Below, in pieces: positions 21,166 through 47,446 of a stretch of DNA of 64,000 bases. A program made the translations under genes and the position numbers. The notes under the pieces were generated by a model. It was not told the origin of the DNA and did not search any database. It saw nothing but the letters and a program-made list of their open reading frames with translations. This DNA is from Squalus acanthias. Taxonomy: Eukaryota. Position 1 is the stretch's first letter, and every line of letters begins with the position of its first letter. The DNA lies in contig CM059431.1 in assembly GCA_030390025.1 (NCBI GenBank), positions 112,408,001-112,472,000 on the forward strand, in the 5' to 3' direction.

Positions 21166-21300
21166 AAAAACCAAGGTGTTGAGATAATTAATGTTTACTT
21201 TAAAGCAAATCATATTTGACATTCCAGAAGGTTGCAACTGGTAACGAAGAAAAAATAAACCTAATCAAAGCATTGCGAGCAATTTTATACAGCTCTCTAC

Positions 21301-22987
21301 TGTAAGGGGTTGTGTCGTGCTTGTATCGCAAGCGGTGCTGGTACGGGGTTAGGCCTTCGTTGCCTAATACTATTGCTTGCTCTGGTCTCCGGCCAGCCTT
21401 GTTGCAATAAGCACCTGTGAGTGGTTCGACCCACTCGCCCTTACGGTTCTAACACTGGACTTAGGTGCGAGAGCAGTAATGCAGAGAAAAACTCAAATAG
21501 ACGCGGTTGAATAGTACGAAATGGAAATCTTTATTGCATAGCGTCCAAGATCATGAAGTACATGTCATAGGCGCAAATTAACGAGAGTACAAGTATACAT
21601 ACATTCATAAAGCTTGTCTATGGTAATGAAGAACGCACGGCACATCGTAAAAAGGGGAACACATTATACTTTATCCTTAATAAAACCACCCTCCCTTATC
21701 AATACCTACACTACATCTAGATTTGTAGGATCGGGAAACATGCTCACCACTCGTGATACTTCGGAGAATTTTAAAGTGAGGCACTCGGCTCGTTTCGCTG
21801 CAGCGCCTGACTGTCACGTGTTTGGAGGGGTCTCTGTACCCCACTTGTTTATCTTCGCTGCTGCGACAAGCAGGCTGGGCTCCCCGTTGTCATGAAGAAC
21901 TCGACAGCACTCGGGCCCGGCTGTAGAACTCAAAGAAAAGTCTTCCTGTACCGACACCAGTTGTCGATAGAATTCGAAGAAGAGTCTTTGACCAGTTCGT
22001 GCAGTAACCTGTAGAGTTCAAGAAATGGGTTGTATATTTTCGGGCGCGGTCGGGGTTTACTGACCGCGGCGGCACGTGGATTCTTCTCCTCTTCTTCTCG
22101 TCTCGTCTCGTCTCTTCTCTTCGGGCCTTCGGGTCCAGACACCGTTTACCGACCCTCGGGATGGTGCACCCGGTCACCGGCCTTCGTCGAGGCGGCTCGT
22201 TCCGTTTGAGCTCCACCCAACATTCGAATAACCGTCCAGTGCGGCTAAAAGTCCAGAGTCAACAGAGTCCAGAGAAACACAGAAGGCTGCTCGTCCAGCA
22301 GAGTTCAGCCCCAGTCAAGAGTCCGCAGAGATAAGAGAAAATAAAGAGGGCGATGGACATTTGTTGTCTATAGTTATAGTGCTGTGTTCCCTTATCTCCC
22401 GCCCAAATCTTAATGTTTGTCCTTTGTGAAATATTGGCGCTCAAAACTCCCAGCATGGGGTGATTCTTGTCTTTAACGGGTTTCGGTAGCACCTGAGACT
22501 GGCCAACTACCCGTTAATGTTTCCCCCATTGTCGAACCGGCTAGGAGCCTCCCTGGCTGGGTTTTGGGGGCCCCCGAATACTTGCTTAATCACCCGAGAA
22601 TGGCTCTCTCATTGTAGAGCCGTGGGGGTATTTGCGTATTGATGTGTCTGGATGGGCCTTCGATTGCCCAGTACAATGGTCCTTACTTGTGCATGGAAAA
22701 CGATTCCAGCACTCATATCTTTTGCTATTGTCACAAATGCAAACAGGTTGCATCCTGTCTTTATCAGTGCTTATCGAGTATGACCCCGTCTTATATTGAA
22801 AATGTTTATTCGAACGCCATCTTGTCTGCCCACTGTACTTCTGGAAACTTCTGCCACGATGCGCGGCGGCCATTTTACAGGCTTCTGTGTCCTGTTTAAT
22901 CATGACAGCATTTCGTTTAAATAAACTGATCAAACGAATCTGCTTCTATCTCGTTATTTCGAATCGCGATAATTGCGAAACTTTACA
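21301..22987 (-). repeat. 3' LTR of provirus A (1687 bp)
   Basis: Direct repeat of 32297-33984; I counted about 4 substitutions and 1 indel; termini TGTAA...TTACA. Confidence 0.97.
21530..21535 (-). terminator. Probable polyadenylation signal of provirus A
   Basis: AATAAA on the minus strand ~230 nt from the LTR end, followed by a U-rich tract; another AATAAA lies at 22805-22810, so the assignment is not unique. Confidence 0.55.
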
Positions 22988-22999
22988 GTCCCTCCTGTT
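22988..22999 (-). promoter_or_regulatory. Polypurine tract of provirus A
   Basis: AACAGGAGGGAC immediately precedes the TG of the 3' LTR. Confidence 0.75.
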
Positions 23000-23385
23000 G
23001 ATGCGAATAACTCCGCTTATCGTATCAATTAAAAGTGGTGGTGAGCAAAATTATCCCGATTCTCCACATCCAAACACTCCCTTAACTTAAAACAATCTAT
23101 GGTCTCCATGCCGTCCTCATTTCCCAGGGAAATTACATTGTTTAAAACTTGGACCAACCGTAGGCAGTATTGCCTTTAAACTTACACTGCGTATACGCCT
23201 TCCTGGTGCAACAGGCCGATGCCTCTCGCACCACCTGTATATGCATGTTTTTATTATACAAGGAATAAAATAATCAAAACCACTCTTTAAAAATACAAAG
23301 TTCCAAACTTAGTTACACATCTTCATAACTAACAATCAATTACAAAAACACACATGGTAAAATGGAGCGGCGTCATCCTGGCCGT

Positions 23386-25709
23386 TTACGCGGTACTTTC
23401 CTCGTTCACGCGCATGTAACGTTCTCTCCACTCTCCTGTGTTCTCCTGCTTTGTGAGGCACTTGCCTCTTTTGCAGTGCACGACCAATAGGTACACTACC
23501 AAAATGTGGGAGGCTATCCTGATCCATGAAGGAACTTCAATATTCGTGAACAGGTCCCACCACGGTGGGATTACTACGTCCAAAATTTCTGTCCCTATTT
23601 CTACTGTTTTCTGTTCCAGGGTGTAAAAATGTTTTTGTGATACCACGACGGCTTTCAAAAGCTTGGTGAGGTGTTCAGGGAGAGGGGGAATGATGTAGCC
23701 GAAATGCGCGACGAATCGTTGCAAGTCGGTGAAATTCTCTTTTACTGTGAGATGAACAGTGGATGGTTCAGGGATCGGGACAATTCGCTGTTGTGCCACT
23801 TGAACTTCAGCCCTGGGTTTAAAACAGAAACTGCTGTCACTCACCGGCTGTGGTTTCCATGCTGGTAGTGTTGCGCTGCAGTGGTAATGCAATATGTTCC
23901 ACCCCCTATGTATGCCACCTGCGGAGGCACATGATCTTGTGTCATTGCCTCCATGGTGCAATTCATGAGCTTGGCGCCAGCCGTTCTGAACCCGCATTGT
24001 GGTGTTAAAAAGGCATTCAAGTGCTGGGGACACAGGATGATGTGTGCTCCCCGGCCACGACAACCCGATAGGTCGGTACCTGTCATCGTTTGCTCCCAGC
24101 GGATGACGTAAGGTGGGACCGCTGCATAGCGAATGTGGGCTCCCCCCTGAATGACACCAATGTTCTCTACCCGATACACCGGGGCGGGCTTTGCTGTGTC
24201 GCCCAAAACCGGCATACGTAGTACTATACCCATGATGGTATGGTTTGACCGTCCGCAGTCCACGGGGACTGGGTATGCCTCTGAGGCTAGCCTGAGCTGG
24301 CACGGGCTTAATGCGTTCTGAAAAGGGTGGAGCGCCTGCAGGTGTTTGTTACTTATCCAGGACGGGACCAAACCTTGTTTTAAATCCTCCAAATTACTGC
24401 GGCCCTCGCCCAGTAACCACGCCCCGTATAGTACGCACACCTCGTTCTGCGCAGCTTGATCGGATGCGTTCCGATCTTCCCTGATCAGGGCATTTACCGT
24501 TCTTGCATGCTTCTCCAGCTCTGCTATAATCTCTTTTAAGTGTAGTGTCATGGCCTGGTCCTCATGTAACTCAGACCCTACTACCTTGTTTTCGCTTGTG
24601 AGGATGCTTTTTAATTGTGTTTTTAAACCGTTGATCTGGGTCTGCAGCTCCACGTTGTCTAGAGCGTTGACCACAGATGTTCCTGTATTAAAGGCGGTGA
24701 ACATATCGTTCACAATACCCCTTCTTTGTCTCCCCACCTGACCCAAAACTTCGTGTGGTGTGGTGTACAAGCTTGTTTTGTCAATCTCTGCAAAATCAAA
24801 CTCGTAGAATTGTCTGAACATGTTTGTCAACAGGACCTGGTACAATTGTTCCGTCTCTTTGGGGCACCACTCTGGTAAACGCACCTCGGTGAGATTTAGA
24901 ATCACCGAGGCCACCGCGTAATGTACCCCCTGAAATAGTATCTGGTCTGTTGGGACCAGTACCAAACCATTCCCGGGCCCCTTAGTGGTTTTAGGGCACC
25001 CTTCCTTTTGAGCCAAAACCACCGGAATCGTGGGCGGAGCCTTGCGTGGGCGCGTGATGAGTTCAGTGGCGTTTACCGGGATCGGGGAGAATGGAGCTCC
25101 GCACCCCTTTGTGCTGACATCCCACCTCATCCCTTTCCCGTTATCCTGCCACTGGTGTACGAAAAATATGGATATACCCTTGGGGCAAACGTATTTCGAT
25201 CCCCACATACAAACATATATTCCCTCATCCGGTTCCCACCATTTGTCCCAACAGACTTTCAATTGTCCGTTAGTCCCCGTAATTGTCCGATGGGTATTGT
25301 TACCCAATCGCTCCCACTCAACCGAGGAATTTCTCATAGTCTTGCTTAACTTCCGTAACCACCACCATCGGCTCAATGGGACCTTCCCATTGCATGTCAA
25401 ACAAATCCTTTTGCCGACGGTGACGCTGATTCTGGGTGCAATGATCCTCACTCTGTGGCACAGTAAAGAAGTCTCTTTGTAGGCAAATCCGGATGCGCTG
25501 GAGTATTCCGTTGAATTCGTTCCCAGCCATCCCGGCCACCTTCCCTTGTGGAAATAAGTGGCGGTCTCCTCAGCCTTTCGCTCCCCGGTCCCATCCGTCG
25601 CGATGGGGCCCGTGTCCCCGGAGCAACCAAACACAACGACATCCTTGGTGAGGCCTCGATAGGCCAATCCATATCCGATCGTTGCGAGCACTATCAGAAT
25701 CCGTTCCAT
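23386..25709 (-). pseudogene. env: Envelope glycoprotein (signal peptide, Ig-like domain, furin site, F-type fusion subunit, TM); one frameshift near 23847
   Basis: 622-aa ORF 25709-23841 continues in another frame (PVSDSSFCF...PPWWDLF...WIRIASHILVVYLLVVHC) to 23386; RQRR|GIVNDMFTAFNTGTSVVN at 24731-24720, heptad repeat, Cys-rich region, multiple N-x-S/T sequons. Confidence 0.9.
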
Positions 25710-25721
25710 CTTTCCTGGTTC

Positions 25722-25740
25722 CTGTGATCAGATAAAATGA
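25722..25740 (-). promoter_or_regulatory. Putative env splice acceptor (provirus A)
   Basis: TCATTTTATCTGATCACAG|G lies 12 nt before the env ATG; provirus B has a stronger acceptor at the equivalent position. Confidence 0.5.
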
Positions 25741-25976
25741 TGTAGCCAGCCTCCCAAGAGTCTCTGGCTTTTGTGAAGGGTGAGCGGGTCCCTTGACCTC
25801 GTCTCACGTAAAAAGACATGTATGCTGGATAGACTTTAACTATTCCTATCACTAAAACTCCCATCACTTTACCATTTACTTTTAAAATTAAACTACAAAC
25901 TTACCAAACTTACAAACTTAAACTTAAACTTATAAACTTATACTGTACAGCGCCGCCCGTTCCCAGGGCGGCCTAC

Positions 25977-26810
25977 CTAAATTCTGCGAAGGCTGCCACG
26001 AGCTTTTCCCAGTGGCGGGGGGGCACTGACCCCTTCCTTTGATCTGCCGCAGCCTGTCGCCGCTGCGCTGGGACTGGGATCTCCCTGGGCTGCCTTGACC
26101 TTGAACTTACGCCTGGGGGCGTACGGGGGACTTGACCACGGCTTCCTGGGCTGGGGTGTCCGACTTGACCTACGGAGGGCTACATTGGGCAAGATTTCCA
26201 GGGCCGACGGACCAGGAACCAAGACTTCCACCGTCACGGCTTGTGGTCCCACCACAGCCGCTGGCTCCGTCTCCCCTGGCTCCGCCTCCCTGAACTCGGG
26301 ATTTGCAGCTTCTGGTTCCACCCTACTTGGCCCAGTATGTGGTCCTCCACTCGCAATCCCTACCTCCCCCAAGGGCAAGACTTCCAGGGCCGACGGACCG
26401 GGTATCGAGACTTCCACCGTCACGACCTGTGGTCCTACCACAGCCGCTGGCTCCGTCTCCCCTAGCTCCGCCCCCCTGGGCTCGGGATCTGCAGTTTCTG
26501 ATTCCACCCTGTGTGGATCTCCACTCGCAGCCCCTATCTCCCCTGAGCTTGAGTCGAGGACGAAACTTCCGTCCTCCGACCCCAGCACCTCTCCGATCGG
26601 GTCACTACCTTGGTCGAGCTCCTCGAGCTCTTCCTCATCTGAATCCCAACACCAAGAAAAGATCCTACACTTTTCTAGAATGTCCTCTCCCCTCACGCAG
26701 GCTGCTTTACTGGTCTGTGTGCCCTGCAGTTCTACCCGGGGCTGCGAGTCCCCACTCGCAGGTTTGGCCCCTGTGGTTGGCCCCTGTGCACCCGGCTTAT
26801 ACAGCTTGCA
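25977..26810 (-). pseudogene. Integrase C-terminal low-complexity extension, cut off by a CAG>TAG stop
   Basis: In frame with pol after WFHIN*CKLYKPG (provirus B reads WFHINQCELYDPG); contains a ~60-aa duplication and LRRSSRTPQPRKPW. Confidence 0.8.
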
Positions 26811-29800
26811 CTAGTTAATGTGGAACCATTTTGTGCGCCGAGGTACCTTTACGGCGTACACCATGGGACTCGCTTTATCTACAATACTGTAGGGCCCCAT
26901 ATACAGTGGTTCCAAACTCCCTACTCTGGCATAGTTCCTAACCATGACCTGATCTCCGACTTCCCACTCCTGCTTCTTACGGGGTTCCAGCAACAGGCGA
27001 TTGCCCTGATGCTGTCTTCCCATGTTCCCAGCTGCCTGCTCGTAAACCTGCTTCAGGCGCTCCAAGAGGGTCTGGACAAACTTGTCCCCTTTCACCTCTT
27101 GGAGCTGACCCTCAGTGAGCACCGGGGCTAGTACATGGGTGGGGGTTCGCATGATCCTCCCAGTCATCACCTCGTACGGGGAATACCCCGTACTTTTCGA
27201 CTGACTGGCCCGGATCCACATGAGGACTAGAGGCAGAACCTCCGCCCATTTTTGGGGCGAGTTCATAGTCTCTTTCCTCAGCTTCTCCTTCAGGGTCCGG
27301 TTCATGCGTTCAACAATCCCTGATGACTGGGGATTGTGCGCTACGTGCCACTTCCCTTCAATGCCCAAAAGCATGAGGGTGTTCTGCATCACCTGGCCGG
27401 TGAAATGACTCCCTTGGTCTGACTCCACGAAACGGGGGAGTCCCCACCGCGAGAACACTTCCCGGACCAAGATCTTGGCAGTACCCAGCGCCGCAGCTGT
27501 TCTACAGGGGAAGGCTTCTACCCATTTGGAAAACACATCCACCAAGACGAGGCAGTATTTGTAGCCTCCCTGGGTGGTGGGCAGGGGCCCTATGTAATCG
27601 ATCTGTATCGACTGCCATGGTCCCTCCACCCTCCTGATGTGCCCCATGTGCACTTTCCTTTTCTGGGGGTCTGGGTTGTTTGCAGCGCACACAAGACAGC
27701 TTGCACAGAACTCGCGGACCTGCTCCCTGAGTCCCGGCCACCATCCCGCCTGCTCTACCCGTTGCCAGGTAACCTCGGGCCCGGGGTGCCCTGCCCCCGG
27801 CCCCTCATGAGCCAACTGGAGGAATTCCCTCCTGTGCTGCTGCGGCACAACCCACTGTTCCTCGCGGAACAGCATGCCTTCTTTAACGGAGAGGGTTGCC
27901 GTACTGTACGGGCCCTCTACCTGCTTGCCCTCAGTAATCGTTCTGAGAACTGTTTTTAGGGCGGGATCCTGGTTCTGGACGGTCTTAAGGTCTAGGGGCA
28001 GTGCTACCCTGGTGTTCCCGGGATTCCCTTCCCTGCCTTGGATCGCTGCCACGGGTCCGGGTCCATAGGGGTCCCAGAAAATGCCGTTACGGGCACCCTC
28101 CCTGGCTAGCGCATCCGCCTGCTGGTTGCCCTCCCCGCGGGGCTCTGTGGAGGAGTGAGCCTTCACCTTATGGTTGAAAATCTCCCCTTCCTCCCCTACT
28201 GCTGCTAGGATCTTTTCCAGCAAGGGCTTCACTGTTAAAGGTCGCCCGTCCGCGGAGGTGTATCCACGGCGGGACCAAATGGCCAGGTATTCCGTACACG
28301 AATTGCACGTAAACATACTGTCCGAACAAATCGTGTATGGGGTTGGGAAAATTTCTGGGTGGGTAACGACGTACGCCACCGCAGACAGCTCAGCCTGCTG
28401 CGCGCTCATGGTGCTGGGGAGTTTAATTGCCAGGGCAAGGTCTGCCGCAGGGTCATAAACTCCACACCCTGTGAGTCGTTCGCCAGCGGACACTGTGCTG
28501 GAACCATCAACATAAATCTCGCGACCTGTGGGATGTATCCCGGCCCGTAAACCTATGTTGACCTCCCACACCCCTTCCACCGAACACCAGTGGGCTGTTC
28601 CGGGGTATACCAAGTTGGCCGCAAGCCTGGGCTCGCAAAGACCTTTAACTCTAAGATCCATCTGGGAAAGGAGAAGGGTCCAGCGCGCAATTCGAGCGCT
28701 GCTTACGGTCCCATCCTTAATCCTCCCATCTAGAAGCATCTTAGTTGGTGTGTGATGGGTGAGGAGAGTGATGGGAGAGAGCCCTGTGAAGATCGCTGAT
28801 CTTTTCACAGCCCAATGCGTGGCTAAAAGATGCCTTTCGCAATTGGAGAAACTCCTCTCCACATCCGTTAACACCCTGGACGAATAGACAACCGGCCTCA
28901 GCTTGCCGTGACGCTCTTGGAGCAGCACGGCGCTCAAGCTGTCTCCGCTGGCAGCTACCTCCAGGAAAAACTCCTTCCTCCCATCTATGGCCCCTAAAGC
29001 TGGCGCGCTCTGCAGATCCCTTTTTAACTTCTCGAATGCTGCCTGGCAACCCTCGTCCCAAGACCACTCCACTCCCTTATGGAGGAGTCGGAGCAGCGGA
29101 GCTGCTGTGGCCGCATAGTCCTCGATGAAGTCTCTACAGTAACCGGTCAGTCCCAGAAAGGACCTCACCCCCGTTATGGTGTTGGGAATCGGTAACTCCT
29201 GCACCGACTCCCTCCTAGCCTTATCTATGGCTCTTTCCCCAGCGCGAATGGTCAGACCTAGGAATTTTACTTCCTGCTGACCGATACGTGCTTTCTTAGG
29301 GTTCACTTTAAAACCCTTTCTCGCTAGCAGCTCCAATAACTTGGCTAGCAGTGGTCCATGCTCCTCCCTTGAGTCCGTGAACAGGAGCAAATCATCCACG
29401 TACTGCACTATCTGATTGGGCTGACTAAACTCCTTTAAACTTCCTGCCATACACTGATGGAAAATACTGGGGCTGTTGTGGAAACCCTGTGGCAAATAGT
29501 TCCATGTGTACTGTTGTCCTTTGAAAGTAAAGGCAAACTTGTACTGGTCCTCTCGCCGCAGCGGGATGGACCAAAAACCGTTCGAGATATCCAGTACCGT
29601 GAACGTGGTCGCGGACGCTGGGATACTCCCTATTAGGTCAGCAACTGCTGCTACTGTGGGCGCGCAGGCGGGGATGTTACTGTTAAGGACTCTGTAGTCC
29701 ACCGTGGCCCTCCACGAATTATCCGGCTTCCTTACCGGCCATAATGGGGAGTTCACGTGTGTGGCTATCGGCCTCAACACGCCCTGCTGCACCAATGAGG

Positions 29801-30467
29801 ACATTGCTGTCTCCATATCGGGTTCTGCTTCTTTGGGGAAGTTATACTGCTTTTGGGGCCGGGTCATGGGGTCCCCGTCTACGCTGACCTCAAACCCGGT
29901 AACCCTCCCACAATCGTGCTTGTGGGTTGCAAACGCGTGCATATTATCTGACACGTACGCTTGCATGTCCGTTGGGACATCCGCGACCATAAGCCCGAGG
30001 TCGTAACCTCCGGATGGCTTCATGGTACACAGGGCCCCTTTACCTTCCTTCCCCGGGATTACAACTACCTTGCCTTTCCCACCCTTGGCTCCCCAGAGAC
30101 AGTGATTCCTAAGGTCCACGAGAATCCCGTGTTCCGATAGGAGATCCGATCCGAGGATACCTCTGCCACCCCCCTCTTGCCATTTCATCAGTATGCACTT
30201 CCATGTGGTGTGGAGTGCTCCTAAATGAATGGAGAGCGGAATGGAGAAGGCGCCAGCCTGCTCTTTTCCCGTGAACCCCGCTAATGTGTATGGGACCTTG
30301 GTAGACAGTGGTGAGTCAAAGGGGCTATCCGTATGAATCACGGTGCATGAAGCTCCCGTGTCCAACAAATAACTACCCTTCTGCTTCTCTACCTCCATCT
30401 CAACCAGGGGTCTTTTCCACGCATCATAGCTGAGCGGACACAGGTAAACGGGCTGCGCGGGCTCTAG
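26811..30467 (-). CDS. pol: Pol: protease, RT, degenerate RNase H tether, RNase H, integrase
   Basis: Open from the gag stop: LLDTGA, LPQGFHNSP, QYVDDLL, tether FFLEVAAS...RPVVYSSR, RNase H IYVDGS/QQAELSA/SDS/GNQQADALA, IN H-H-CxxC, IQIDYIGP, SDQGSHF, GIVERMN, GPY. Confidence 0.96.
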   Translation of the reverse strand, partial: LEPAQPVYLCPLSYDAWKRPLVEMEVEKQKGSYLLDTGASCTVIHTDSPFDSPLSTKVPYTLAGFTGKEQAGAFSIPLSIHLGALHTTWKCILMKWQEGGGRGILGSDLLSEHGILVDLRNHCLWGAKGGKGKVVVIPGKEGKGALCTMKPSGGYDLGLMVADVPTDMQAYVSDNMHAFATHKHDCGRVTGFEVSVDGDPMTRPQKQYNFPKEAEPDMETAMSSLVQQGVLRPIATHVNSPLWPVRKPDNSWRATVDYRVLNSNIPACAPTVAAVADLIGSIPASATTFTVLDISNGFWSIPLRREDQYKFAFTFKGQQYTWNYLPQGFHNSPSIFHQCMAGSLKEFSQPNQIVQYVDDLLLFTDSREEHGPLLAKLLELLARKGFKVNPKKARIGQQEVKFLGLTIRAGERAIDKARRESVQELPIPNTITGVRSFLGLTGYCRDFIEDYAATAAPLLRLLHKGVEWSWDEGCQAAFEKLKRDLQSAPALGAIDGRKEFFLEVAASGDSLSAVLLQERHGKLRPVVYSSRVLTDVERSFSNCERHLLATHWAVKRSAIFTGLSPITLLTHHTPTKMLLDGRIKDGTVSSARIARWTLLLSQMDLRVKGLCEPRLAANLVYPGTAHWCSVEGVWEVNIGLRAGIHPTGREIYVDGSSTVSAGERLTGCGVYDPAADLALAIKLPSTMSAQQAELSAVAYVVTHPEIFPTPYTICSDSMFTCNSCTEYLAIWSRRGYTSADGRPLTVKPLLEKILAAVGEEGEIFNHKVKAHSSTEPRGEGNQQADALAREGARNGIFWDPYGPGPVAAIQGREGNPGNTRVALPLDLKTVQNQDPALKTVLRTITEGKQVEGPYSTATLSVKEGMLFREEQWVVPQQHRREFLQLAHEGPGAGHPGPEVTWQRVEQAGWWPGLREQVREFCASCLVCAANNPDPQKRKVHMGHIRRVEGPWQSIQIDYIGPLPTTQGGYKYCLVLVDVFSKWVEAFPCRTAAALGTAKILVREVFSRWGLPRFVESDQGSHFTGQVMQNTLMLLGIEGKWHVAHNPQSSGIVERMNRTLKEKLRKETMNSPQKWAEVLPLVLMWIRASQSKSTGYSPYEVMTGRIMRTPTHVLAPVLTEGQLQEVKGDKFVQTLLERLKQVYEQAAGNMGRQHQGNRLLLEPRKKQEWEVGDQVMVRNYARVGSLEPLYMGPYSIVDKASPMVYAVKVPRRTKWFHIN

Positions 30468-32219
30468 TCATTGGGTACCGGTGGACGGGGTTGCGGCATC
30501 TGTGAGGCCGGTAGCGACTGCCACCCTTCCTTGCGAAATCATAAGGGACCGCATAGCTCCCAACATTGATTCTGTCGCATCGGGATGGATAGGCACACCA
30601 GCTCCTCTCTCAGAGACAGGCGCTTGGGTTCGGGCTGCGGGATTTTTATCCATGGGGTCCTTCCAGGGGTTCCTACAGTTCTTACGCCAGTGACCTGTCT
30701 TCCCACACCCGTAACAAGCACCACTGGCTTGTGGGGCGCGGTTTCCCTCCTGATGCCACTCCTTTTGAGCCGGGGCTGCGGGCCGTGCCTCATGCACCTT
30801 TCCCTTAAGGGGACGCGCTCCCGTGCTCCTAGTGATACGATACCCTATGGTGAGTCGATTTAGGACCGACTCCTCTGTTGTGGCGGGGTTAGTGGGATCA
30901 AACCACGCTTTGGCCTGCTCCCTGACGGCTGGCAAACTGTTGGCTACTAAACACCTGAGCCAGTGAGTTAAACCGGCACCGTTCAGGTAATCGCGCCCTG
31001 GCGCACCTGGGCAGCTACGCTGGTATACTGGCCACAGCCTGTCGGCGAAAACCTTCGGGGGTTCTCCCTCCATCTGTATGGTTTGACTCAATCTGACGAA
31101 CGGACCTTCGTCATCCGCCCCTAACACTTCTAGGACCTCGTCCCGTAACTCCTCATAGGTTTTATTCCCCTTCTTACTCTCGTCTGAGAGACACTGAAGG
31201 ATCGAGCTATCTAACGAGAACAGCAACATTTTGGTCTTTTCCTCATCGTCGCAGCCATTAATTGCTGCGGTCTGTTCTACCTCCCTAAAGTGTACGGAAG
31301 GGTCGTCTGACTCGGACAGCTTCCGTACATGGCTAATCATTGCTCTCAGCTGGTGTGAGCTGTGAGGCAATACGAGCTGGTTCAGGACATCCCCCTCTGC
31401 CCCATTTGCCCCACCCGGGCCTCTCTTGTGACCTCGGAGCGGACACATCGGTCCCGGTCTCGGCTCTACCTCCGGGGACTGTCCTACCTCGGGAACCTCC
31501 TTCTCTATTTCCACCACTTCCTCCCTTTCCCAGGTTGCCGAATAGCTGGGTGGCGCGGAGGGCGCAGTGGCAAATACCTCCTCTGCTTTGTCTGGTAGGG
31601 ATTTTGGGAATTCCCTACCCACCTGTGACTGGTTTGCTGATGGGCTGATGAGGCACACCAAGCCGTTTGCCTTATTCAGGGCCTCTCTTAGGTTCCCTAA
31701 CTCCTTCTGGCAAACACTGTGGTCGGCTCCCTCATGCCTATCCTCGAGGGCCATCTTATATGCCGCCCTAACTCCCTTCAAGCTTTCTTCCTGGGCTTTT
31801 ATCTGGTTAGCTAGGCGGGCACACCGTTCTCTAATCCTACCCTCGTTTAATTTCGCTTCCGTGATCTGACACTCTAGGTAATCAATTTTAGCCTCATGGT
31901 GGTTGGCTACTATCTGGCGTTCCTGATGTAAAGCATTCAAGGATGCAATGAGTTTCTGTCCTCCCGTGATCTTTTCCTCCATCTCAACTTCCAAATCCCT
32001 GATCTGAGCTGCCTGTGCTACAATGACCTGGTCCGAAAGTTGGACTTGCTTCTTGTAGCACATCAGCCAGACCGCTTTCTCTACCGACTTCTTATGCTCT
32101 TTACTGCCTGTCCATTTGATGGCTGCGTCTAGCGGACGCTTATCCATCAGTAGGTCACTTATCCACCTTTTGGTTAAGTTAACCTTCCCAAACACATAGT
32201 CGGCTACCCTCTCATCCAT
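30468..32219 (-). CDS. gag: Gag: coiled-coil N-terminus, PSAPPSY late domain, capsid, single CCHC zinc knuckle
   Basis: Intact ORF; ATG at 32219 (MDERVADYVFGK) aligns with MEDRISSYVFGK of provirus B; CYGCGKTGHWRKNC. Confidence 0.92.
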   Translation of the reverse strand: MDERVADYVFGKVNLTKRWISDLLMDKRPLDAAIKWTGSKEHKKSVEKAVWLMCYKKQVQLSDQVIVAQAAQIRDLEVEMEEKITGGQKLIASLNALHQERQIVANHHEAKIDYLECQITEAKLNEGRIRERCARLANQIKAQEESLKGVRAAYKMALEDRHEGADHSVCQKELGNLREALNKANGLVCLISPSANQSQVGREFPKSLPDKAEEVFATAPSAPPSYSATWEREEVVEIEKEVPEVGQSPEVEPRPGPMCPLRGHKRGPGGANGAEGDVLNQLVLPHSSHQLRAMISHVRKLSESDDPSVHFREVEQTAAINGCDDEEKTKMLLFSLDSSILQCLSDESKKGNKTYEELRDEVLEVLGADDEGPFVRLSQTIQMEGEPPKVFADRLWPVYQRSCPGAPGRDYLNGAGLTHWLRCLVANSLPAVREQAKAWFDPTNPATTEESVLNRLTIGYRITRSTGARPLKGKVHEARPAAPAQKEWHQEGNRAPQASGACYGCGKTGHWRKNCRNPWKDPMDKNPAARTQAPVSERGAGVPIHPDATESMLGAMRSLMISQGRVAVATGLTDAATPSTGTQ

Positions 32220-32273
32220 CACATTTCGCCTATTCACACCAGGGTCTAAAACATTACTCTCTCGCTGCCAGAG

Positions 32274-32291
32274 TCCTGCCGCGGTCAGCCA
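32274..32291 (-). promoter_or_regulatory. Primer-binding site of provirus A (tRNA-Ser-like)
   Basis: TGGCTGACCGCGGCAGGA 5 nt after the 5' LTR; the TGGC...GCAGGA pattern resembles the complement of tRNA-Ser 3' ends, exact tRNA uncertain. Confidence 0.7.
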
Positions 32292-32296
32292 TTTTC

Positions 32297-33984
32297 TGTA
32301 AGGGGTTGTGTCGTGCTTGTATCGCAGGCGGTGCTGGTACGGGGTTAGGCCTTCGTTGCCTAATACTATTGCTTGCTCTGGTCTCCGGCCAGCCTTGTTG
32401 CAATAAGCACCTGTGAGTGGTTCGACCCACTCGCCCTTACGGTTCTAACACTGGACTTAGGTGCGAGAGCAGTAATGCAGAGAAAAACTCAAATAGACGC
32501 GGTTGAATAGTACGAAATGGAAATCTTTATTGCATAGCGTCCAAGATCATGAAGTACATGTCATAGGCGCAAATTAACGAGAGTACAAGTATACATACAT
32601 TCATAAAGCTTGGTCTATGGTAATGAAGAACGCACGGCACATCGTAAAAAGGGGAACACATTATACTTTATCCTTAATAAAACCACCCTCCCTTATCAAT
32701 ACCTACACTACATCTAGATTTGTAGGATCGGGAAACATGCTCACCACTCGTGATACTTCGGAGAATTTTAAAGTGAGGCACTCGGCTCGTTTCGCTGCAG
32801 CGCCTGACTGTCACGTGTTTGGAGGGGTCTCTGTACCCCACTTGTTTATCTTCGCTGCTGCGACAAGCAGGCTGGGCTCCCCGTTGTCATGAAGAACTCG
32901 ACAGCACTCGGGCCCGGCTGTAGAACTCAAAGAAAAGTCTTCCTGTACCGACACCAGTTGTCGATAGAATTCGAAGAAGAGTCTTTGACCAGTTCGTGCA
33001 GTAACCTGTAGAGTTCAAGAAATGGGTTGTATATTTTCGGGCGCGGTCGGGGTTTACTGACCGCGGCGGCACGTGGATTCTTCTCCTCTTCTTCTCGTCT
33101 CGTCTCGTCTCTTCTCTTCGGGCCTTCGGGTCCAGACACCGTTTACCGACCCTCGGGATGGTGCACCCGGTCACCGGCCTTCGTCGAGGCGGCTCGTTCC
33201 GTTTGAGCTCCACCCAACATTCGAATAACCGTCCAGTGCGGCTAAAAGTCCAGAGTCAACAGAGTCCAGAGAAACACAGAAGGCTGCTCGTCCAGCAGAG
33301 TTCAGCCCCAGTCAAGAGTCCGCAGAGATAAGAGAAAATAAAGAGGGCGATGGACATTTGTTGTCTATAGTTATAGTGCTGTGTTCCCTTATCTCCCGCC
33401 CAAATCTTAATGTTTGTCCTTTGTGAAATATTGGCGCTCAAAACTCCCAGCATGGGGTGATTCTTGTCTTTAACGGGTTTCGGTAGCACCTGAGACTGGC
33501 CAACTACCCGTTAATGTTTCCCCCATTGTCGAACCGGCTAGGAGCCTCCCTGGCTGGGTTTTGGGGGCCCCCGAATACTTGTTTAATCACCCGAGAATGG
33601 CTCTCTCATTGTAGAGCCGTGGGGGTATTTGCGTATTGATGTGTCTGGATGGGCCTTCGATTGCCCAGTACAATGGTCCTTACTTGTGCATGGAAAACGA
33701 TTCCAGCACTCATATCTTTTGCTATTGTCACAAATGCAAACAGGTTGCATCCTGTCTTTATCAGTGCTTATCGAGTATGATCCCGTCTTATATTGAAAAT
33801 GTTTATTCGAACGCCATCTTGTCTGCCCACTGTACTTCTGGAAACTTCTGCCACGATGCGCGGCGGCCATTTTACAGGCTTCTGTGTCCTGTTTAATCAT
33901 GACAGCATTTTGTTTAAATAAACTGATCAAACGAATCTGCTTCTATCTCGTTATTTCGAATCGCGATAATTGCGAAACTTTACA
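32297..33984 (-). repeat. 5' LTR of provirus A (1688 bp)
   Basis: Direct repeat of 21301-22987, adjacent to the PBS. Confidence 0.97.
33366..33434 (-). promoter_or_regulatory. Putative LTR promoter of provirus A (CCAAT, GC-rich box, TATAA)
   Basis: Minus-strand CCAAT 33434-33430, GGCGGGAGA 33400-33392 and TATAA 33375-33371 in canonical order and spacing. Confidence 0.5.
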
Positions 33985-34039
33985 GTACCTCAAAAACAAA
34001 TGATTTAAATCATCACTTTGATTGAAAGAAAATATTGAG

Positions 34040-39401: not shown

Positions 39402-40386
39402 TGTAGGATCTGTTCCTCCCCCTCAACGGTAAAAATTGGACTATGAAATATAAAAACCCAGAACTGCACAGCCCGCAAAAAGAGATGGGCAATAAAGGGT
39501 TAATTCAACATTGCAGCCGAAACTACAAACCATCAAGAGACTGGATCACAGACAACCTAAAATACGAATGCTTCTGAACAAGAACATTTGCATATTCATT
39601 TGCATATTCATTTACATTGTTAAAGAAGACCATGGCCCCAGAATAACTAGTATCAGTGCAGGCCTAGACAATGGGCCGGGCCTTGAACTATTTGAATACG
39701 AATGCTAACAGAAACCAACAACTAGCATATGCAGTCACCTTGGGAAGGTTGCATTCTCAGAAAGGTATCTCTAATCAATGGACAATACGAGGGACAATTA
39801 GCCATCAAGAGTTCTCTGCTAGAGACATTCACACATTTTGCACAGGAAGGGCAGGAAATGTGTTTCAAGATTGCAAGTTGGTTTTGCTTTAAAGGAAGAG
39901 TCACTTCGAAGAGAGTGTTGTGGTGGGAAGCTAACGGAAGAACAGCGAGCAGAAAAATTCAGGGCCTACAATCAACTCCAGGAGACAGCCGACCGGGAGT
40001 GGTGATTGTATGTTTCAGTCAAATCATAGAGGGGGCTTTTGTGATTGAGTCTGAGTAAGTTGTAAGTTTCAGTCAGATCACAATAAGGGTTTTTGTGATT
40101 GAGTCTGGGTAACTTTATATGTAACAGCCAAATCGCGGACGGGTTTAACTGTGTCATATTATGCCAATGCAAATGACCCTTGCGTAGAGGTTTGTATTTT
40201 GGGGTTGTTAGTCTAATATAAATCATAGGGATTTATACTGGGAAGGTAACTGTGTGTGTGTTTAATAAATGAACGAATCAAAGGTTGAGCCAAAACCTTG
40301 TGCCGTGTGTATTTTGTTCTTATAAATCCTGACGTCCAAGAACTGTGTGTGTAACGGGGGACCAGTAACGGAGAAAACCCCTTACA
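39402..40386 (+). repeat. 5' LTR of provirus B (985 bp)
   Basis: TGTAGGATC...CCCCTTACA; direct repeat of 47576-48563, roughly 95% identical by eye. Confidence 0.95.
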
Positions 40387-40391
40387 GAACC

Positions 40392-40408
40392 TGGCGACCG
40401 CAGCAGGA
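40392..40408 (+). promoter_or_regulatory. Primer-binding site of provirus B (tRNA-Ser-like)
   Basis: TGGCGACCGCAGCAGGA, 5 nt after the LTR, nearly identical to the provirus A PBS. Confidence 0.75.
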
Positions 40409-40461
40409 CATTCAAGGTTTAGAACAAAATTATGGACAGGGTTAAGTGCAAGAAACCCGTG

Positions 40462-42113
40462 ATGGAGGATAGGATATCCTCGTATGTGTTTGGGAAAGTA
40501 AACATTCCCGAGCACTGGATGCGGGAAATGTTACACTCTGACAGTCCATATGAGAAAGCGGGAGCGTGGACGGGTAGTAGCGTACATAAGAAATCGAAGG
40601 AAAAGGCGATTTGGCTAATATGTATGCAGAAACAAATTCAGATGCTCACAGAGAAAGTTGAGCGTTTGGGAAAAGAGAAACAGGAATCAGAATGTAGGGC
40701 AGGAGGGAGAGAGGCCGTAGTGAACTGGCTGACAGAAGATTTGAGCTTTGAAAGGCAGAAGAGAAAAGCGCAGGAAGAAACAGCTAGAAACACGTTAGAG
40801 TACCTGCAATGTCAGGTCACCGAAAGTAGAAGGCAGTGTCAGGCTCAGCGTGAGGAAGGTAATAGGAACTCAGAGAGAGCTGACAAGGCTGAGGAGCAGT
40901 TAAAAGATATAAAGGTGGTCTACAGGGTAGCCAAAAACCTGGTACATGAAGAGGCCGATCACAGGCTCTGTAATGAAAAAATCCATAAGTTGACCCTAGC
41001 ATTATCCCGGGCGAGGGGTATGGTTTGTCTCATGGCACCAAGGGAAGTTGGGGTAGACTGGGATGAGGAGGAAAAGGAGCCCGATGATGGGATCCAGTAT
41101 AGAGAGGTTCGACCGGCTCCCGAAGCACAGGGACCGCCGGGACCGATGTGTCCCCTGTGACAGCAAAAGTTCGGTCCACCCCCACAAGGCGGCAGTCAGG
41201 GGCCATTGCAGAGTGATTATGTGCTTCCCTATATGTCCCTTCAGTTGCAGGAAATGCTGGCCAGTGTGCCGAAACTGAAGCACGGAGTGGTTGCCTCTGT
41301 TCATTTTGCCAATGTAGAGCAGATAGGGGGGATCAATAATTGTGACGACGACGAACGGAAAAAGCTGGTATTGTTCTCTCTAGATGAGAAGCTGTACCAG
41401 GTTTTGTTGGCAGCCATTAAGTTAGGAGGGGGTACCCTGGACGGGGTAAAAGACAAAATTTTAATGGCGCTGGGACATAGCCAGGGCAGCCCATACTTGC
41501 AGGTCGAGCAGACCAGACAATTGGTTGGCGAGGCACCGGATGCATTCGCAGACAGGTTGTGGCCCGTGTATCTGAAAGCGATGGGGAGAAATCTAGCCCG
41601 AGCACAGTTGTTAGGGGCTCCCAGGAATCATTGGTTGAGGACCCTAGTGGCTAACAGCCTGCCACGGATCAGGGCTAGGGCGGAATCATGGTTCGACTCC
41701 GAGGATGTTAATAATACAGAGCCAGGCGTGTTAAGGAAACTGACTCTGGCTTTTAAATCCGACTGAGGGGAGGAGAATAAACAAAAGGAAAAAGTACACA
41801 AGATGAAGGGAAGCGTGGATGGTAGAAAAGAATGGAAGCAGGAGGGGGGTAAGGTGGACAGATCCCAGGCGTGCTTTAACTGTGGGAGAATGGGACACTG
41901 GAACAGGGAGTGCAAGTTCCCAAAAAGGGAAAAACCAGGATACGGGGGTCCCTCAGGGTCAAAACCGCGGGTAGTAGAGGCAGAGAAGGAGAGGGTAGAA
42001 GACCCGGTGGAACTTCTAGTGACCGCGTTATGGCAGTTATGGGCAAAGACCAGGGAAAGCTGGACGCTGCCGTATGCAGTGAAAAGCCCAGCGCGCCCCC
42101 ACTTCTCCCATGA
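40462..42113 (+). pseudogene. gag: gag of provirus B, disrupted
   Basis: Homologous to provirus A Gag (AIWLICMQKQ, GPMCPL, FADRLWPVY, HWLRTLVANSLP, CFNCGRMGHWNREC); stops at 41158 and 41764 and a late frameshift. Confidence 0.9.
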
Positions 42114-45100
42114 CTAGGACGCACCCAGCCTGAGTACCTGTGCCCGCTCACCTACGATGAGTGGGGCAGACCTTGTGTAGAGATCAGGGTAGAGGCCTGT
42201 TCAGGGAAAGTATCTAGTGGACACCAGAGCTTCCAGTACAGTGGATCACTCACCAAACCCGACCACTTCTCCATGGTCAAGCAGAGTCCCGTTTAAGTTA
42301 GTGGGTTTCACAGGGAGCAAGGAAACTGGGGCGGTATCGAAACCTTTGTCTATAAGGTTAGGACCCCTTGTCACTAAGTGGGAATGCGTACTGATGCAAT
42401 GGAATCAGCCCGGCGCGGGGGTCCTCGGAGCTGATTTTATGCTGGCCCACTATGTGATCTTGGATATGAGAAACCACTGTCTATGGGGGGTGGTTGGTTC
42501 AGATAAACCTGAGGAAGTTCTAGTTATCCCCAAGGTGGAGAAAGTGAAAGGTAGCGCCTGTACTATGAAACCGAAGGGTGGCTATGACTTGGAACAATTG
42601 GTCCGTAGCACCCCGGAAAGGTATCGGGGATATGTGAAAAATAATCTCGCAGTGTTCGCCACTCACTGACATGACTGTGGTAGGGTAACAGGGGTAGAGG
42701 TGGAGGTACACGGGGACCCAATGTCACGACCTCAGAAACAGTATAGTTTTCCCCGGGAGGCAGAGAAGGACATGGAAACTGCACTGAGCTCCCTCGTGGA
42801 ACAAGTGGGTACTGAGACCGATAGCGACCCACGTAAATTCACCCCATGGCCAGTTAAGAAGCCCAATCAGTCATGGAGAGCCATGGTAGACTACCGGGTT
42901 CTTAATAAAGGTATTCCAGCATGCGCGCCCACGGTAGCAGCAGTAGCCGATCTAATAGGGAATATCCCTGCGGAGGCAACGACATTCACTGTATTGGACA
43001 TAGCTAACGGGTCCTGGTCTCTCCCAGTAAGACGGGAGGATCAGTATAAATTTGCCTTTACATTCAAAGGGCAACAGTATACGTGGTCATGCCTCCCGCA
43101 AGGGTTTCATAACAGTCCCTGAATTTTCCATCAGTGTATGGCTAATGCTTTAAAGAATTTCAGTCAGCCTAGCCAGTTGATCCAGTACATGGATGACCTA
43201 TTATTATTCTCAGAAATTGCAGAGGACCACAGGCCACTACTGGACGAGTTACTAAAGCTGTTGGGGGAGGCAGGGTTTAAGGCAAACCCCAAGAAAGCCC
43301 AAATAGGACAGGAGGAGGTGAAATTCTTAGGATTGACGATTAGGGCAGGGGAAAAGGCTATAGACGAGGCGAAGAGGAGGGCAATACAGGAACTACCCGC
43401 TCCAAAGAGCAACTGGGGTGAGATCTTTTCTTAGTATGACAGGGTATTGCAGGGATTTTATTGAAGGCTATGCAGCCACAGCAGCCCCTTTGCTTAGACT
43501 CCTTAGGAAAGGAGTAGGATGGGAATGGGATGAGAGTTGTAAGGAGGCATTTACTCGCCGAAAGGAAAATTTACAAACGGCACCCGCACTAGGAGCAATA
43601 AACGGGAACGAAGATTTTTATCTGGAGGTAGCAGATACTGGGGATAGTTTGAGTGCAGTGTTGCTCCAAGAACGGCCTGACAAGTTGAGGCCAGTAGCTT
43701 ATGCCTCCCGAGTCCTGACAGATGTAGAGAGGGGTTACTCGAACTGCGAAAGACACCTTCTGGCGAGCTATTGGGCCGTCAAACGTTTCCAATTATTTAT
43801 GGGGTTATCTTTAATAACCTTACTGACATGTCATACCCCGACACAGATGCTATTGGATGGGAGGTTAAAAGATGGGACAGTGAGTAGCAGTCGTATTGCC
43901 CGCTGGACATTGCTACTCTCCCAGATGAACCTGAGGGTGGAAAGATTGGCGGAACCTAAGCTGGCCTCGAACATGAGTTATCTAGGGACGAATCACATGT
44001 GCACAGTAGAAGGGGTATGGGATGTAGACGTGGGATTCCGGGCCGGGCAACATCCGACAGGGAGCGATATATATGTGGATGGGTCCAGCTCGGTGATAAA
44101 CGGAGAGCGTAGGGCAGGGTGTGGAATTTATGACCCAGGGGCTGGAATAGAGTAAGCCATCAAACTCCCCAGCACACTGAGTGCACAGCAGGCCGAGCTG
44201 GCGGCTGTAGCTTATGTGGTCACGCATCCCGAGGAATTCCCAACCCCCTGCACAATATGCTCAGACTCGATGTTCACGTGCAATTCTTGCACTGAATATC
44301 TGGCAATATGGGCTAGACGAGGATTCAAGTCCGCCGACGGGAAACCGTCAGTAATCGTCCCACTGCTGAACACAATCCTGGGCGTAACGGGCAATAAAGG
44401 GGAGTATTACATTCAAAAAGTAAAGGCGCACTCAAAAACCGAGCCTAAGTGGAAAGGTAACCGGAAGGCCGACGAGTTGGCAAAAAAGGGGGCCAGGGTG
44501 GGAGTACTTTGGGACCCGTAGCGATCTGGACAGATCGCGGCCATAAGGGATATGGAGGGCCCACCGGAGGTGACGTTGCCCCCAGACCTGACCCAGGTTC
44601 AAGCACAAGATACGGTTTTAAAAACCGTGATTAAGAAAAGGGTAGAAGAGGAATCAATTGAGATATAGTGGTCAAAGAGGGGATGCTGTTTAAAGGGGAA
44701 AGGCGGATCATGCCCACACAGTACCGGGAGGAATTTATGCAGCTAGCTCACGGGGGTCCGGGAGCTGGACATCCAGGGCTGGAAACTACCTGGAAGAAAG
44801 TGGAGGAGGTGGCTTGGTGGCCTCATCTCAGGGAAGAGGTGAAGGAATATTGCAGGGAGTGCCTAGTGTGCGCTGTGAACAATCCAGACCCCCACCGTAG
44901 AAAGGCACCATTGGGACACGTTAGGAGGGTAGAGGGACCATGGCATTCTATACAAATAGACTTCATTGGGCCCCTGCCCACCACAAAAGCAGGCAACAAG
45001 TATTGTCTGGTGTTGGTGGACGTTTTCTCTAAGTGGGTTGAGGCCTTCCTTTGTTGAACAGCCACAGCATTAAACACGGCTAAGATCCTAGTAAGGGGCG

Positions 45101-45990
45101 TGTTCTCCCGATGGAGATTGCCCCAGGTAGTGGAATCAGATCAGGGGAGCTATTTCACAGGACAAGTCATGCAGACCACCCTGAAACTTTTAGGGATACA
45201 GGGAAAATGGCATGTGGCCCACAACCCCCAATCATCGGGAATAGTGGAAAGGATGAACCGGACCTTAAAGGAAAGGCTTAGGAAGGAGATAGGGGGGTAC
45301 CCAAAGAAATGGGACGAGGTCCTGCCTCTAGTTCTCATGAATATCAGGGCCAGCCTCTCCAAAAGCGCAGGACACTCTCCGTATGAGCTGATGACCGGTA
45401 GGGCGATGAGGACCCCAACTCATGTGTTGGTACCGGTCCTGACCGAAGCTCAAATGAGGGAGGTCAACCAGGACAGGTTCATAAAAGACTTGTATGAGAC
45501 CTTGAGGAAAGTACAATGGGAAGCCGCAAATAACATGGGCAGCCTGCACCAGAAGAATAGAATGCTGTTAGAGCCACAGAAAGTACAAGAGTGGAAGGTA
45601 GGGGACCAGGTCATGGTGAGAAATTATGCCCGGGTAGGGGCTTTCGAGCCACTGTATGTGGGGCCGTACAGTATAGTGGACAAGGCAAGCCCTATGGTTT
45701 ACGCAGTGCAGCTGCCAAAACAGACAAAGTGGTTCCACATTAATCAATGTGAACTCTATGACCCCGGGAAGAGGGGAATAAAACAAACCAGAGCCCAGGG
45801 AACGATCACGAGTTTCACCAATGGAAGTTTTCCTCCCATATTGTGGGATGATGACGAAAACCCAGAGAGTGGAGCGGTGAGAAGGAGTAGTCGAACACCC
45901 CGACCTAGGGTGCCTTGGACGCCTCATCGCACACCGACCCCGAGCCACAAGAGGTCCCAACCGAACAGTCAGGAAAAAGGGACGCGGTGA
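42114..45990 (+). pseudogene. pol: pol of provirus B, multiple stops and frameshifts
   Basis: Fragments LVDTRA, LPQGFHNSP, YMDDLL, IYVDGS, IQIDFIGP, SDQG, GIVERMN, collinear with provirus A Pol. Confidence 0.93.
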
Positions 45991-46070
45991 TTGTAGAAAT
46001 CACAGCATGTATAATATCTATATAACTTAAGTTTGACCTGTGGAGGGAAGGCCTCTCACAGAGCGTTGCT

Positions 46071-46094
46071 ATTTTCCTTTTCTTTTATTTGCAG
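46071..46094 (+). promoter_or_regulatory. Putative env splice acceptor (provirus B)
   Basis: ATTTTCCTTTTCTTTTATTTGCAG, 25 nt upstream of ATGGATCAGATC (46120). Confidence 0.65.
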
Positions 46095-46119
46095 AGGTGA
46101 GTCGAACGGAGGACGCAGG

Positions 46120-47446
46120 ATGGATCAGATCAGGACAGATGGGGCGAGGCGACATCGAGATGTCGTTTACTTACGGGTGTATGGGAGGAGCCGGGCCCAC
46201 CGTAACACAGGGAGGTAGAGCACGGGGCACTGACGGGATAGCTACATACTTCCATGAGGGAAAATGGCTGGGCTGGTTGGGGTCAAATTCCACTAAATAT
46301 TCCAATTACACTGGTTACAAATTCGGTGAAGCATCAGTGCCCTGCCCCAAATTAAATAGCACCACCAAAAAGGTACTGGTGAACGAGGGAAGGCAAGTGT
46401 GCCTAGAATGCTGGGGAAGTATCTCCGTGGGATGGTGGTGGTGGCTTTGGAAAACAGACAAGGCAAAGGGTAATGAATCCACGGATTGGGAAAGATTGGG
46501 GAACGACTCGTACAGATCAATTGTGGGGACAAAGGGGGGTGTGAAATTATGTTGGGACAAGTGGTGGAAGGAGGAACAAGGGGTTTATGTGTGTGTGGGA
46601 GGATCGGAACGTAAATGCCAGAAGGGGGTGTCCATCGCTTTTAAACGGCAGTGGCAAGATTCCGGGTCTGGAATAGGCTGGACTCAGAGTTTCGATTTGT
46701 GTGTGGTCCCAGATCCTCCAAACGCAGTCAATGCTACCGAACTAGTAGCGCACGATAAGAAGCCCCTACCATCAGCCCCAAAGACACGGGATAAAGAGGT
46801 TAAGTGCCCCATAATGACACCCGGACCTAGGAATGGGTTAGTACTGATTCCAACAGGGAAGGTGTTGTACCATGACGTGCATTACGAGGTAGCATCTGTT
46901 ATCCTTAATTTGACAAAGGTACAGCTACCCCGGTGGTGCCCAGCTGAAACGGAAAAATTGTACGAGAAACTATTAAAAGAAATGTTCTGGCAATTCTACG
47001 AGTTGAACTATGGGGATGAAAGTCGGAAGGATTTGTATAAATGAGCTGACAACAGTCACACCGGTTTGGGGAGACGGAAGAGGGGATTGATCAATGACGC
47101 GGCCACGGTGTTTAATACAGGGACATCACTGGTCAATAGTATAGATGATGCCCAGCTGCAAACGCAGGTCAATACCTTACGGGATCAGCTAAAGAGGATA
47201 CTGGGGGAGGGTAATGAGATTGAGGGACAGGAATTAAGAGATCAGATCAGGGAAATGACCACCCCACCTTGGTGGGACATTGGGTTTAATATTGAAATTC
47301 CTCCCTGGATCCGAATTGCCTCACATGTATTGATAATTGTGCAATTAATTATGGTGTTGTATCTATTTGGGTTATCGTGTAAAACAAAACGAAGGGTAAA
47401 AATGGAAAAACAGGAAAGACTGTATAAAGGGGATTTGGGATTATAG
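46120..47446 (+). pseudogene. env: env of provirus B, disrupted and internally deleted
   Basis: Ig-like domain, stop at 47042, RRKR|GLINDAATVFNTGTSLVN (47072-47083), ~320-codon in-frame deletion near 47236, TM WIRIASHVLIIVQLIMVLYLFGLSC. Confidence 0.88.

Follow-up and report, generated by a model that had tools for sequence, protein, structure and literature searches.

A defective provirus with a predicted paramyxovirus-F-type envelope, likely of the snakehead retrovirus grade, in a probable elasmobranch genome

To which branch of the retroviruses does a provirus belong whose polymerase carries two RNase H domains and whose envelope protein (Env) resembles the fusion proteins of Mononegavirales? 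The question is raised by a stretch of 64,000 nucleotides (nt) of contig CM059431.1 (assembly GCA_030390025.1, positions 112,408,001 to 112,472,000), hereafter the window, in which a complete provirus occupies positions 21301-33984 on the minus strand. An earlier, sequence-only reading of the window took these two features together as the definition of lokiretroviruses and labelled the provirus accordingly. This label is not supported: with high probability, the element represents a canonical retrovirus that survives as a defective copy in the germ line, that likely belongs to the grade of snakehead retrovirus (SnRV) and class III elements, and that has an Env predicted to be of the paramyxovirus F type and a Gag-Pol polyprotein that would likely be made by readthrough of a UGA-CUAG stop.

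The element runs from one long terminal repeat (LTR) through the primer-binding site (PBS), gag, pol, env and the polypurine tract to the other LTR, as the sequence-only reading had described it (coordinates of all features are collected in Table 1). The two LTRs differ by four transitions and one 1-nt indel (0.24% divergence), in line with the earlier count of about 5 of 1688 nt, and gag and the core of pol, comprising protease, reverse transcriptase (RT), RNase H and integrase, are open, with the catalytic motifs present. The pol frame (30467-26814) encodes 1218 amino acids (aa) in the same frame as gag, whose stop codon lies at 30470-30468. Pol matches the Pfam families RVP, RVT_1, RT_RNaseH, RNase_H, Integrase_H2C2 and rve, and the acidic catalytic residues are lost in the tether RNase H and kept in the second RNase H; the PBS is presumably of the tRNA-Arg type. 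Three lesions had been recognised and all three are real: a stop codon at 26813-26811, at a place where the frame stays open in a second provirus of the window (39402-48563); a switch of the env frame between about 23865 and 23847, located by tblastn of the homologues P0121, P0123 and P0127; and a transmembrane (TM) segment about 7 residues shorter than in all three homologues compared. The list was not complete, however: in three of the four read runs compared, most family contigs differ from the PBS of this copy by a one-base indel near 32287. The provirus is a defective copy, from which a full Env cannot be made in one frame.

The case for a canonical retrovirus is carried by the RT. Trees were built from 63 of 117 rows, from 77 of 220 rows and from a third set of 72 rows, in which 17 near-duplicates were removed and 12 viral loci (six foamy virus genomes and six other viral genomes) were added. 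The SnRV anchor (P0015) matches the published SnRV row over the stretch compared, and the lokiretroviral anchors are three near-identical eel rows (P0183, P0186 and P0196) of a single lineage, matching Loki-Aro by eye. In the 77-row tree, the gypsy branch is followed by the lokiretroviruses (100/100) beside the Retroviridae (100/99), with the RT of the window inside the Retroviridae; the 72-row tree again places it there, with support of 100/99. It groups with NYNRIN-like elements of frog and coelacanth (96/95 with 77 rows and 80/92 with 72 rows), and in the 72-row tree it stands outside both the foamy clade (six rows, 100/100) and the gamma/epsilon clade (99/96). Constraining it to the lokiretroviruses costs 35 and 39 log-likelihood units (p=0.0125 in the approximately unbiased (AU) test on the first data set), and a constraint joining the window group with SnRV is not rejected (AU p=0.40). 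The RT is 46% identical to that of SnRV vs 37-38% to the three lokiretroviral anchors, and SnRV is the best of 22 viral loci for this match (44-46%).

A sequence motif points the same way. All 24 published lokiretroviral RT rows (supplement of PMC7947760) have PFG at a position where the window RT has PQG, as do the SnRV, foamy, gamma and epsilon rows. Motif look-ups of five top Pol matches in this supplement returned nothing, which first indicated that these matches were not lokiretroviral; the top Pol matches are named NYNRIN-like, and closeness to CGIN1/NYNRIN is a mark of lokiretroviral integrases. Membership of Ty3/gypsy is contradicted by an RT outside the gypsy branch and by the dual RNase H, and membership of Odin by the presence of env, the tree itself containing no Odin rows. 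The sequence-only reading had held that an RT grouping firmly inside the ortho- or spumaretroviruses would refute its label, and the RT does lie inside the canonical Retroviridae. The features on which that label had been founded do not define lokiretroviruses, because all retroviruses have a dual RNase H and foamy viruses, too, have an F-like Env. We consider the element likely to be of the SnRV/class III grade (clade Huo/class III as described in PMC6001957).

The resemblance of the Env to Mononegavirales fusion proteins is borne out at the level of predicted fold. The natural open reading frame (ORF) was modelled from a 24-row alignment, and a Foldseek search of the PDB with this model gave 98 matches at E 0.001 or better, the best 40 of which are all paramyxovirus or pneumovirus F proteins (best 1ztm, E 7.7e-9, TM-score about 0.3). 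When the model was independently aligned with 48,161 chains in VIA, F proteins took eight of the first nine places, among them 3maw (Z 10.1, rmsd 19.2, 291 aligned), and the remaining one went to a foamy virus Env, 8rm0 (Z 8.3, rmsd 4.6, 225 aligned); BFVD and ESM Atlas agree with an F-type match. Env is thus predicted to be a paramyxovirus-F-type fusogen by its fold, though not from sequence searches alone.

The same type of Env can be followed into SnRV. Direct tblastn against SnRV gave no match for the window Env and, for Gag, only the zinc knuckle, so that a profile was needed to link the two Env proteins. In HHalign, the SnRV Env (genome L001) aligns with the profile of the window Env family at 94%, E 1.4e-7, over 288 columns spanning the cleavage site, and it scores 15.8 bits against the family hidden Markov model vs at most 6.2 for 300 shuffles. 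On these profile scores, the SnRV Env is homologous to the core of the window Env family. The published lokiretroviral Env rows (Loki-Pma and Loki-Lch) show the same order of cysteines and motifs as the core of the window Env and begin without its N-terminal arm of about 220 residues, both judged by eye and not computed.

This arm probably holds an immunoglobulin (Ig)-like domain. Nine of its 10 best family matches in ESM Atlas belong to the Ig clan (0.91-0.93), and Ig_3 hits the Env homologue P0129 at E 0.0085, below the cut-off. The arm model has no Foldseek match at E 0.001, and its best VIA Z is 4.4. The N-terminal arms of the window family and SnRV do not align (1.8%); V-set matches the SnRV Env at E 0.16. 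Ig-fold binding domains are known in gamma-type Env (bioRxiv 10.1101/2024.03.17.585361).

Among 38 Env matches, 22 were checked for their host; 17 of these are elasmobranch, one frog, one coelacanth and one eel, with identities of 20-77% across these hosts. An elasmobranch host, be it shark, skate or ray, is therefore likely, which is compatible with the shark genome proposed earlier. The nearest Env relatives belong to Rhinoraja longicauda, a skate (74-77%), and Pristiophorus japonicus, a sawshark (53-74%). The skate copies P0121 and P0122 are nearer to the window Env than any named shark match except one (74%), and virus crossing between sharks and skates is one of two readings of this closeness, the other being a batoid host. 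P0121 has an internal env deletion, as does the second provirus of the window. Long ORFs of the family also occur in distant hosts: P0133 in Chiloscyllium punctatum (739 aa), P0149 in Pelodytes ibericus (723 aa) and P0265 in Anguilla anguilla (644 aa), the last without the N-terminal arm. The eel Env P0159/P0265 did not serve as a lokiretroviral anchor because by eye it differs from the Loki-Aro Env row.

The second provirus belongs to the same lineage and is older. Its LTRs differ in 41 of 984 columns and do not align with those of the first element; it has a perfect 4-bp target-site duplication (TSD), many stops and an internally deleted env. Differences in Pol between the two proviruses are distributed over the codon positions as 24/17/59%, the concentration at third positions being as expected under purifying selection, if both copies descend from replicating viruses. 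The PBS of the second provirus matches that of SnRV in 12 of 18 letters (counted by eye). In both proviruses, 5 nt separate the LTR end from the PBS (32292-32296 on the minus strand and 40387-40391 on the plus strand); the gap in SnRV is 1 nt.

The second copy also bears on Gag-Pol expression. In both proviruses, gag ends in UGA-CUAG in frame with pol (at 42111 in the second), and this 7-mer is kept despite 32% divergence and occurs only once in the minus-strand interior of the first element. UGA-CUA is the alphavirus-type signal, as in Sindbis and o'nyong-nyong viruses (PMC13517186). The conservation of UGA-CUAG in both proviruses, together with the match to this signal, makes readthrough the likely route to Gag-Pol. 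The retroviral contexts given in the part of that review available to us are UAGGGA, UAGGAU, UAGGGC, UGAAGA, UGACGA and UGAAGU, without UGACUA, so that UGA-CUAG would add a context to this list; UAGGGC is that of SnRV, which we confirmed in genome L001.

Several results weigh against the assignment and the predictions made so far. The lokiretroviral constraint on the RT is not significantly rejected in the second data set (AU p=0.087), nor is a foamy constraint (AU p=0.20). The lokiretroviral anchors stand for one lineage only, and the sister relation of the window RT to SnRV itself is an unresolved fork in both trees; for these two reasons we speak of the SnRV grade and not of an SnRV sister. 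The integrase tree (65 of 77 rows) gives no resolved place to the window integrase, and in it the two lokiretroviral rows fall among the relatives from frog and coelacanth (100/95), so that the window lineage may share its integrase type with lokiretroviruses. Confidence in the Env model is modest, with a mean pLDDT of 56.5 that is exceeded over residues 245-600 and TM-scores of about 0.3; neither the window Env nor 23 homologues match Pfam PF00523 or any Pfam Env family, and in a profile search of PDB sequences F0 appears only at E 0.5. The model of the Ig-like arm is not confident (pLDDT 45), and downstream of the gag stop there is no conspicuous RNA structure that could stimulate readthrough (z from +1.1 to -1.3).

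Among known systems, SnRV is the nearest in organisation and in the likely mode of Gag-Pol expression; at entry, given its predicted F-type Env, the element would resemble a lokiretrovirus or a foamy virus. It shares with the window provirus gag and pol in frame behind one stop, a Gag with a coiled coil and one CCHC knuckle, a similar PBS, the homologous Env core and the best RT match among viral genomes. It differs in its stop context (UAG-GGC vs UGA-CUAG) and in the shorter LTR-PBS gap; further, the window provirus has no long ORF between env and the LTR, and the N-terminal Env arms did not align. CmiERV lineage I of the elephant shark is likewise an endogenous retrovirus of a cartilaginous fish reported to cluster with SnRV, with LTRs 3.3% apart vs 0.24% in the window provirus (PMC4422223); SnRV-like endogenous retroviruses are thus already on record from that host.

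These comparisons lead to a broader proposition, which we regard as evenly balanced: that the SnRV grade, including the infectious SnRV, carries an F-type Env homologous to those of lokiretroviruses and foamy viruses; that the retroviral ancestor would have had a paramyxovirus-like fusogen, with the orthoretroviral Env a later replacement; and that the window family adds a captured Ig-like arm and alphavirus-type readthrough. Wang and Han (2022) preferred independent origins of env because they found no detectable similarity between canonical and lokiretroviral Env proteins (PMC9040795), and F-like Env has been published for lokiretroviruses (PMC7947760) and foamy viruses (PMC11468914). The foamy Env structures of 2024 had already weakened the preference for independent origins. 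Calcraft (2024) is said to have described the F-like Env of foamy viruses. No published statement of an F-type Env in the SnRV grade was found in a literature search that lay outside most subscription journals. With F-type Envs in a third lineage of RTs, one to which a virus grown in fish cell culture belongs, an F-type ancestral Env would become directly testable. The predicted fold of the window Env suggests a greater age and a wider distribution of such envelopes among retroviruses than is assumed at present. What makes the locus valuable is this bearing on the ancestral envelope of retroviruses; the window copy itself is less singular than first supposed, being defective and one of very many. 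For annotators, the practical lesson is that a dual RNase H combined with an F-like Env is not enough to identify a lokiretrovirus.

The alternative that survives best, possible although clearly the less probable, is recombination: a canonical retrovirus would have exchanged its F-type env, and perhaps its integrase, with lokiretroviruses, in which case the shared Env would be silent on the ancestral envelope. The nesting of lokiretroviral integrases among the relatives of the window lineage fits such an exchange, and domain replacement is reported to be frequent in retroviruses (PMC7947760). The Env family is, however, deeply diverged and widespread across elasmobranchs, frog, coelacanth and eel, and because SnRV and the foamy viruses (PMC11468914) share this Env type, three separate RT lineages would each need to have acquired it. 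As a side observation, the integrase tree hints that lokiretroviruses took their integrase from, or share it with, the lineage of the frog and coelacanth NYNRIN-like elements.

A canonical retrovirus with a predicted F-type Env remains our preferred reading, under which the history of the copy may be pictured as follows. The founding virus would have had a tRNA-Arg-primed genome translated into Gag and, via readthrough, Gag-Pol, and an Env cut at RQRR by a furin-type protease; the probable Ig-like arm would have bound the cell, and the F-type core would have refolded, fusing the membranes. Integrase would have inserted the window copy with a 4-bp duplication, and within the host lineage the family would have multiplied to a very large number of copies. 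The window copy presumably entered its site around the time of the split from organism C, or later, and has decayed since.

Read data were available as 20 runs from seven coded organisms, in which 14-63% of the sampled words were present. In the four runs compared, contig depth summed over the interior exceeds that of the unique flanks by factors of hundreds to thousands, a ratio that is not a copy number; the provirus family is plainly very abundant. At the left junction of the insertion, runs X11 and X20 gave no contig and X2 gave an unrelated piece. A contig of organism C, a relative of the likely host (depth 2), matches the left flank exactly over 121 letters, continues with 18 extra letters and the target site CTAC, and then gives the first two right-flank letters instead of the LTR, where the display ends. 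This is consistent with an empty site in which CTAC is the original copy of the TSD. As the site is apparently empty in organism C, the insertion is young relative to host speciation.

Four substitutions over 1687 LTR sites correspond to 0.54 million years (My; 0.15-1.4) at a mammalian rate, to 5.4 My (1.5-13.8) if the rate that PMC4422223 assumes for sharks is used and to about 1.7 million generations at the epaulette shark rate reported in PMC10587355. The sequence-only reading had inferred a recent integration; relative youth is upheld by the LTR divergence and the empty-looking site, but the word recent calls for caution, given about 5 My (1.5-14) on a shark clock and an overall span of roughly 0.5-14 My across clocks.

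Two samples of organism A, the likely host (X1 and X2), one of which could be related to the source of the window, both have a contig running from the last 26 letters of the LTR into the right flank, fewer than the 31 letters of the bridging rule, and with no empty allele listed, insertion polymorphism was not seen at this locus. Relative to the window, both samples share two indels, at 34416-34878 (17 letters) and 36591-36593 (about 33 letters), so that the window is probably a third haplotype. That junction in both samples, like the single TSD mismatch, could be taken to mean that the insertion is much older than its LTRs suggest and that gene conversion has homogenised them. We consider this improbable: at the divergence of the LTRs, about 14 changes are expected across the 9.3-kb interior, which is compatible with the four visible lesions, so that gene conversion is not needed, and the site looks empty in organism C, with all 121 flank letters matching.

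It is still less probable that the element is a lokiretrovirus, which would be the first in cartilaginous fishes. The likenesses are a tether plus RNase H, an F-type Env with an R-X-[KR]-R site and a related integrase type (as described for lokiretroviruses in PMC7947760 and PMC9040795); the Env core resembles the Loki-Pma and Loki-Lch rows (by eye, not computed), the integrase scores best among distant anchors with a lokiretroviral row (189 vs 129 bits for SnRV), and the constraint escapes rejection in one of the two data sets. These points are outweighed by the position of the RT inside the Retroviridae in both trees, the AU rejection in the first data set and the absence of PFG, and the window element further differs in its added Env arm and in that no smc-like ORF was seen. 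The original screen (PMC7947760) covered six chondrichthyan genomes; two of them, Chiloscyllium punctatum and Scyliorhinus torazame, were scored without a lokiretroviral RT, yet both carry the window Env family, which fits an F-type Env riding on a non-lokiretroviral RT.

The least probable alternative, a foamy-like (spumaretroviral) element, has in its favour the very long LTRs, an Env that aligns with foamy Env and the unrejected constraint, but the six foamy RTs form a long branch of their own without the window RT (in a tree without fish foamy-like rows), and gag has a CCHC knuckle and shares its frame with pol, a single stop lying between them; on balance it is very unlikely. In foamy viruses, Gag has no zinc knuckle and Pol is expressed apart from Gag; the gag-pol layout of the window provirus is not foamy, and its RT does not appear to be. 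The common ground is an F-like (subclass Ib) Env core, with 8rm0 as the structural match, and even here the foamy receptor-binding domain lies between the subunits (PMC11468914), whereas the extra module of the window Env is N-terminal.

Table 1. Coordinates of the two proviruses and of the features of the first in the window
Feature	Position	Strand	Basis or remark
Left TSD copy, CTAC	21297..21300	+	4 bp; flanking letters
3' LTR, 1687 nt, TG...CA	21301..22987	-	LTR comparison
Polypurine tract adjoining 3' LTR	22988..22999	-	sequence
env C-terminal piece, second frame: membrane-proximal region, shortened TM segment, tail	23386..23847	-	tblastn of homologues P0121, P0123, P0127
env main ORF: signal peptide, N-terminal extension, predicted F-type fusion core	23844..25709	-	ATG 25709
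Env furin-type RQRR site	about 24720-24731	-	within env main ORF
Probable Ig-like domain, Env N-terminal extension	25190..25435	-	ESM Atlas; sub-threshold Ig_3 on homologue
In-frame tail after pol stop, 277 codons	25977..26810	-	sequence
In-frame stop near end of integrase C-terminal domain	26811..26813	-	lesion of provirus 21301-33984
pol: protease, RT, degenerate RNase H (tether), catalytic RNase H, integrase	26814..30467	-	Pfam; catalytic motifs
gag stop in UGA-CUAG context, in frame with pol; likely readthrough signal	30464..30470	-	
gag, 583 aa, coiled-coil region and one CCHC zinc knuckle	30471..32219	-	ATG 32219
PBS, 5 nt inside 5' LTR	32273..32291	-	one-base indel vs most family contigs
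5' LTR, 1688 nt, TG...CA	32297..33984	-	LTR comparison
Right TSD copy, GTAC, one mismatch to left copy	33985..33988	+	flanking letters
Second, older provirus, same lineage	39402..48563	+	LTRs about 4% apart; pol 68% nt identical

Some further features of the window deserve mention. The Pol tail is acidic, contains a 138-nt stretch that is duplicated internally (89%, spacing 186 nt) and has a basic RRSSRTP motif in common with the second provirus; two LTR ORFs of about 120 codons have no credible Pfam match. Outside the proviruses, a near-perfect inverted repeat at 12755-13669, with 449-nt arms that are 98% identical and a 17-nt spacer, looks like a young palindromic derivative of a DNA transposon, and related shorter pieces lie at 4181-4382. 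Two 3' ends of long interspersed nuclear elements (LINEs), at 20299-21165 and 57184-58048, are 93% alike, with the provirus beginning about 135 nt beyond the first, and a LINE RT fragment is found on the minus strand at 60476-61072.

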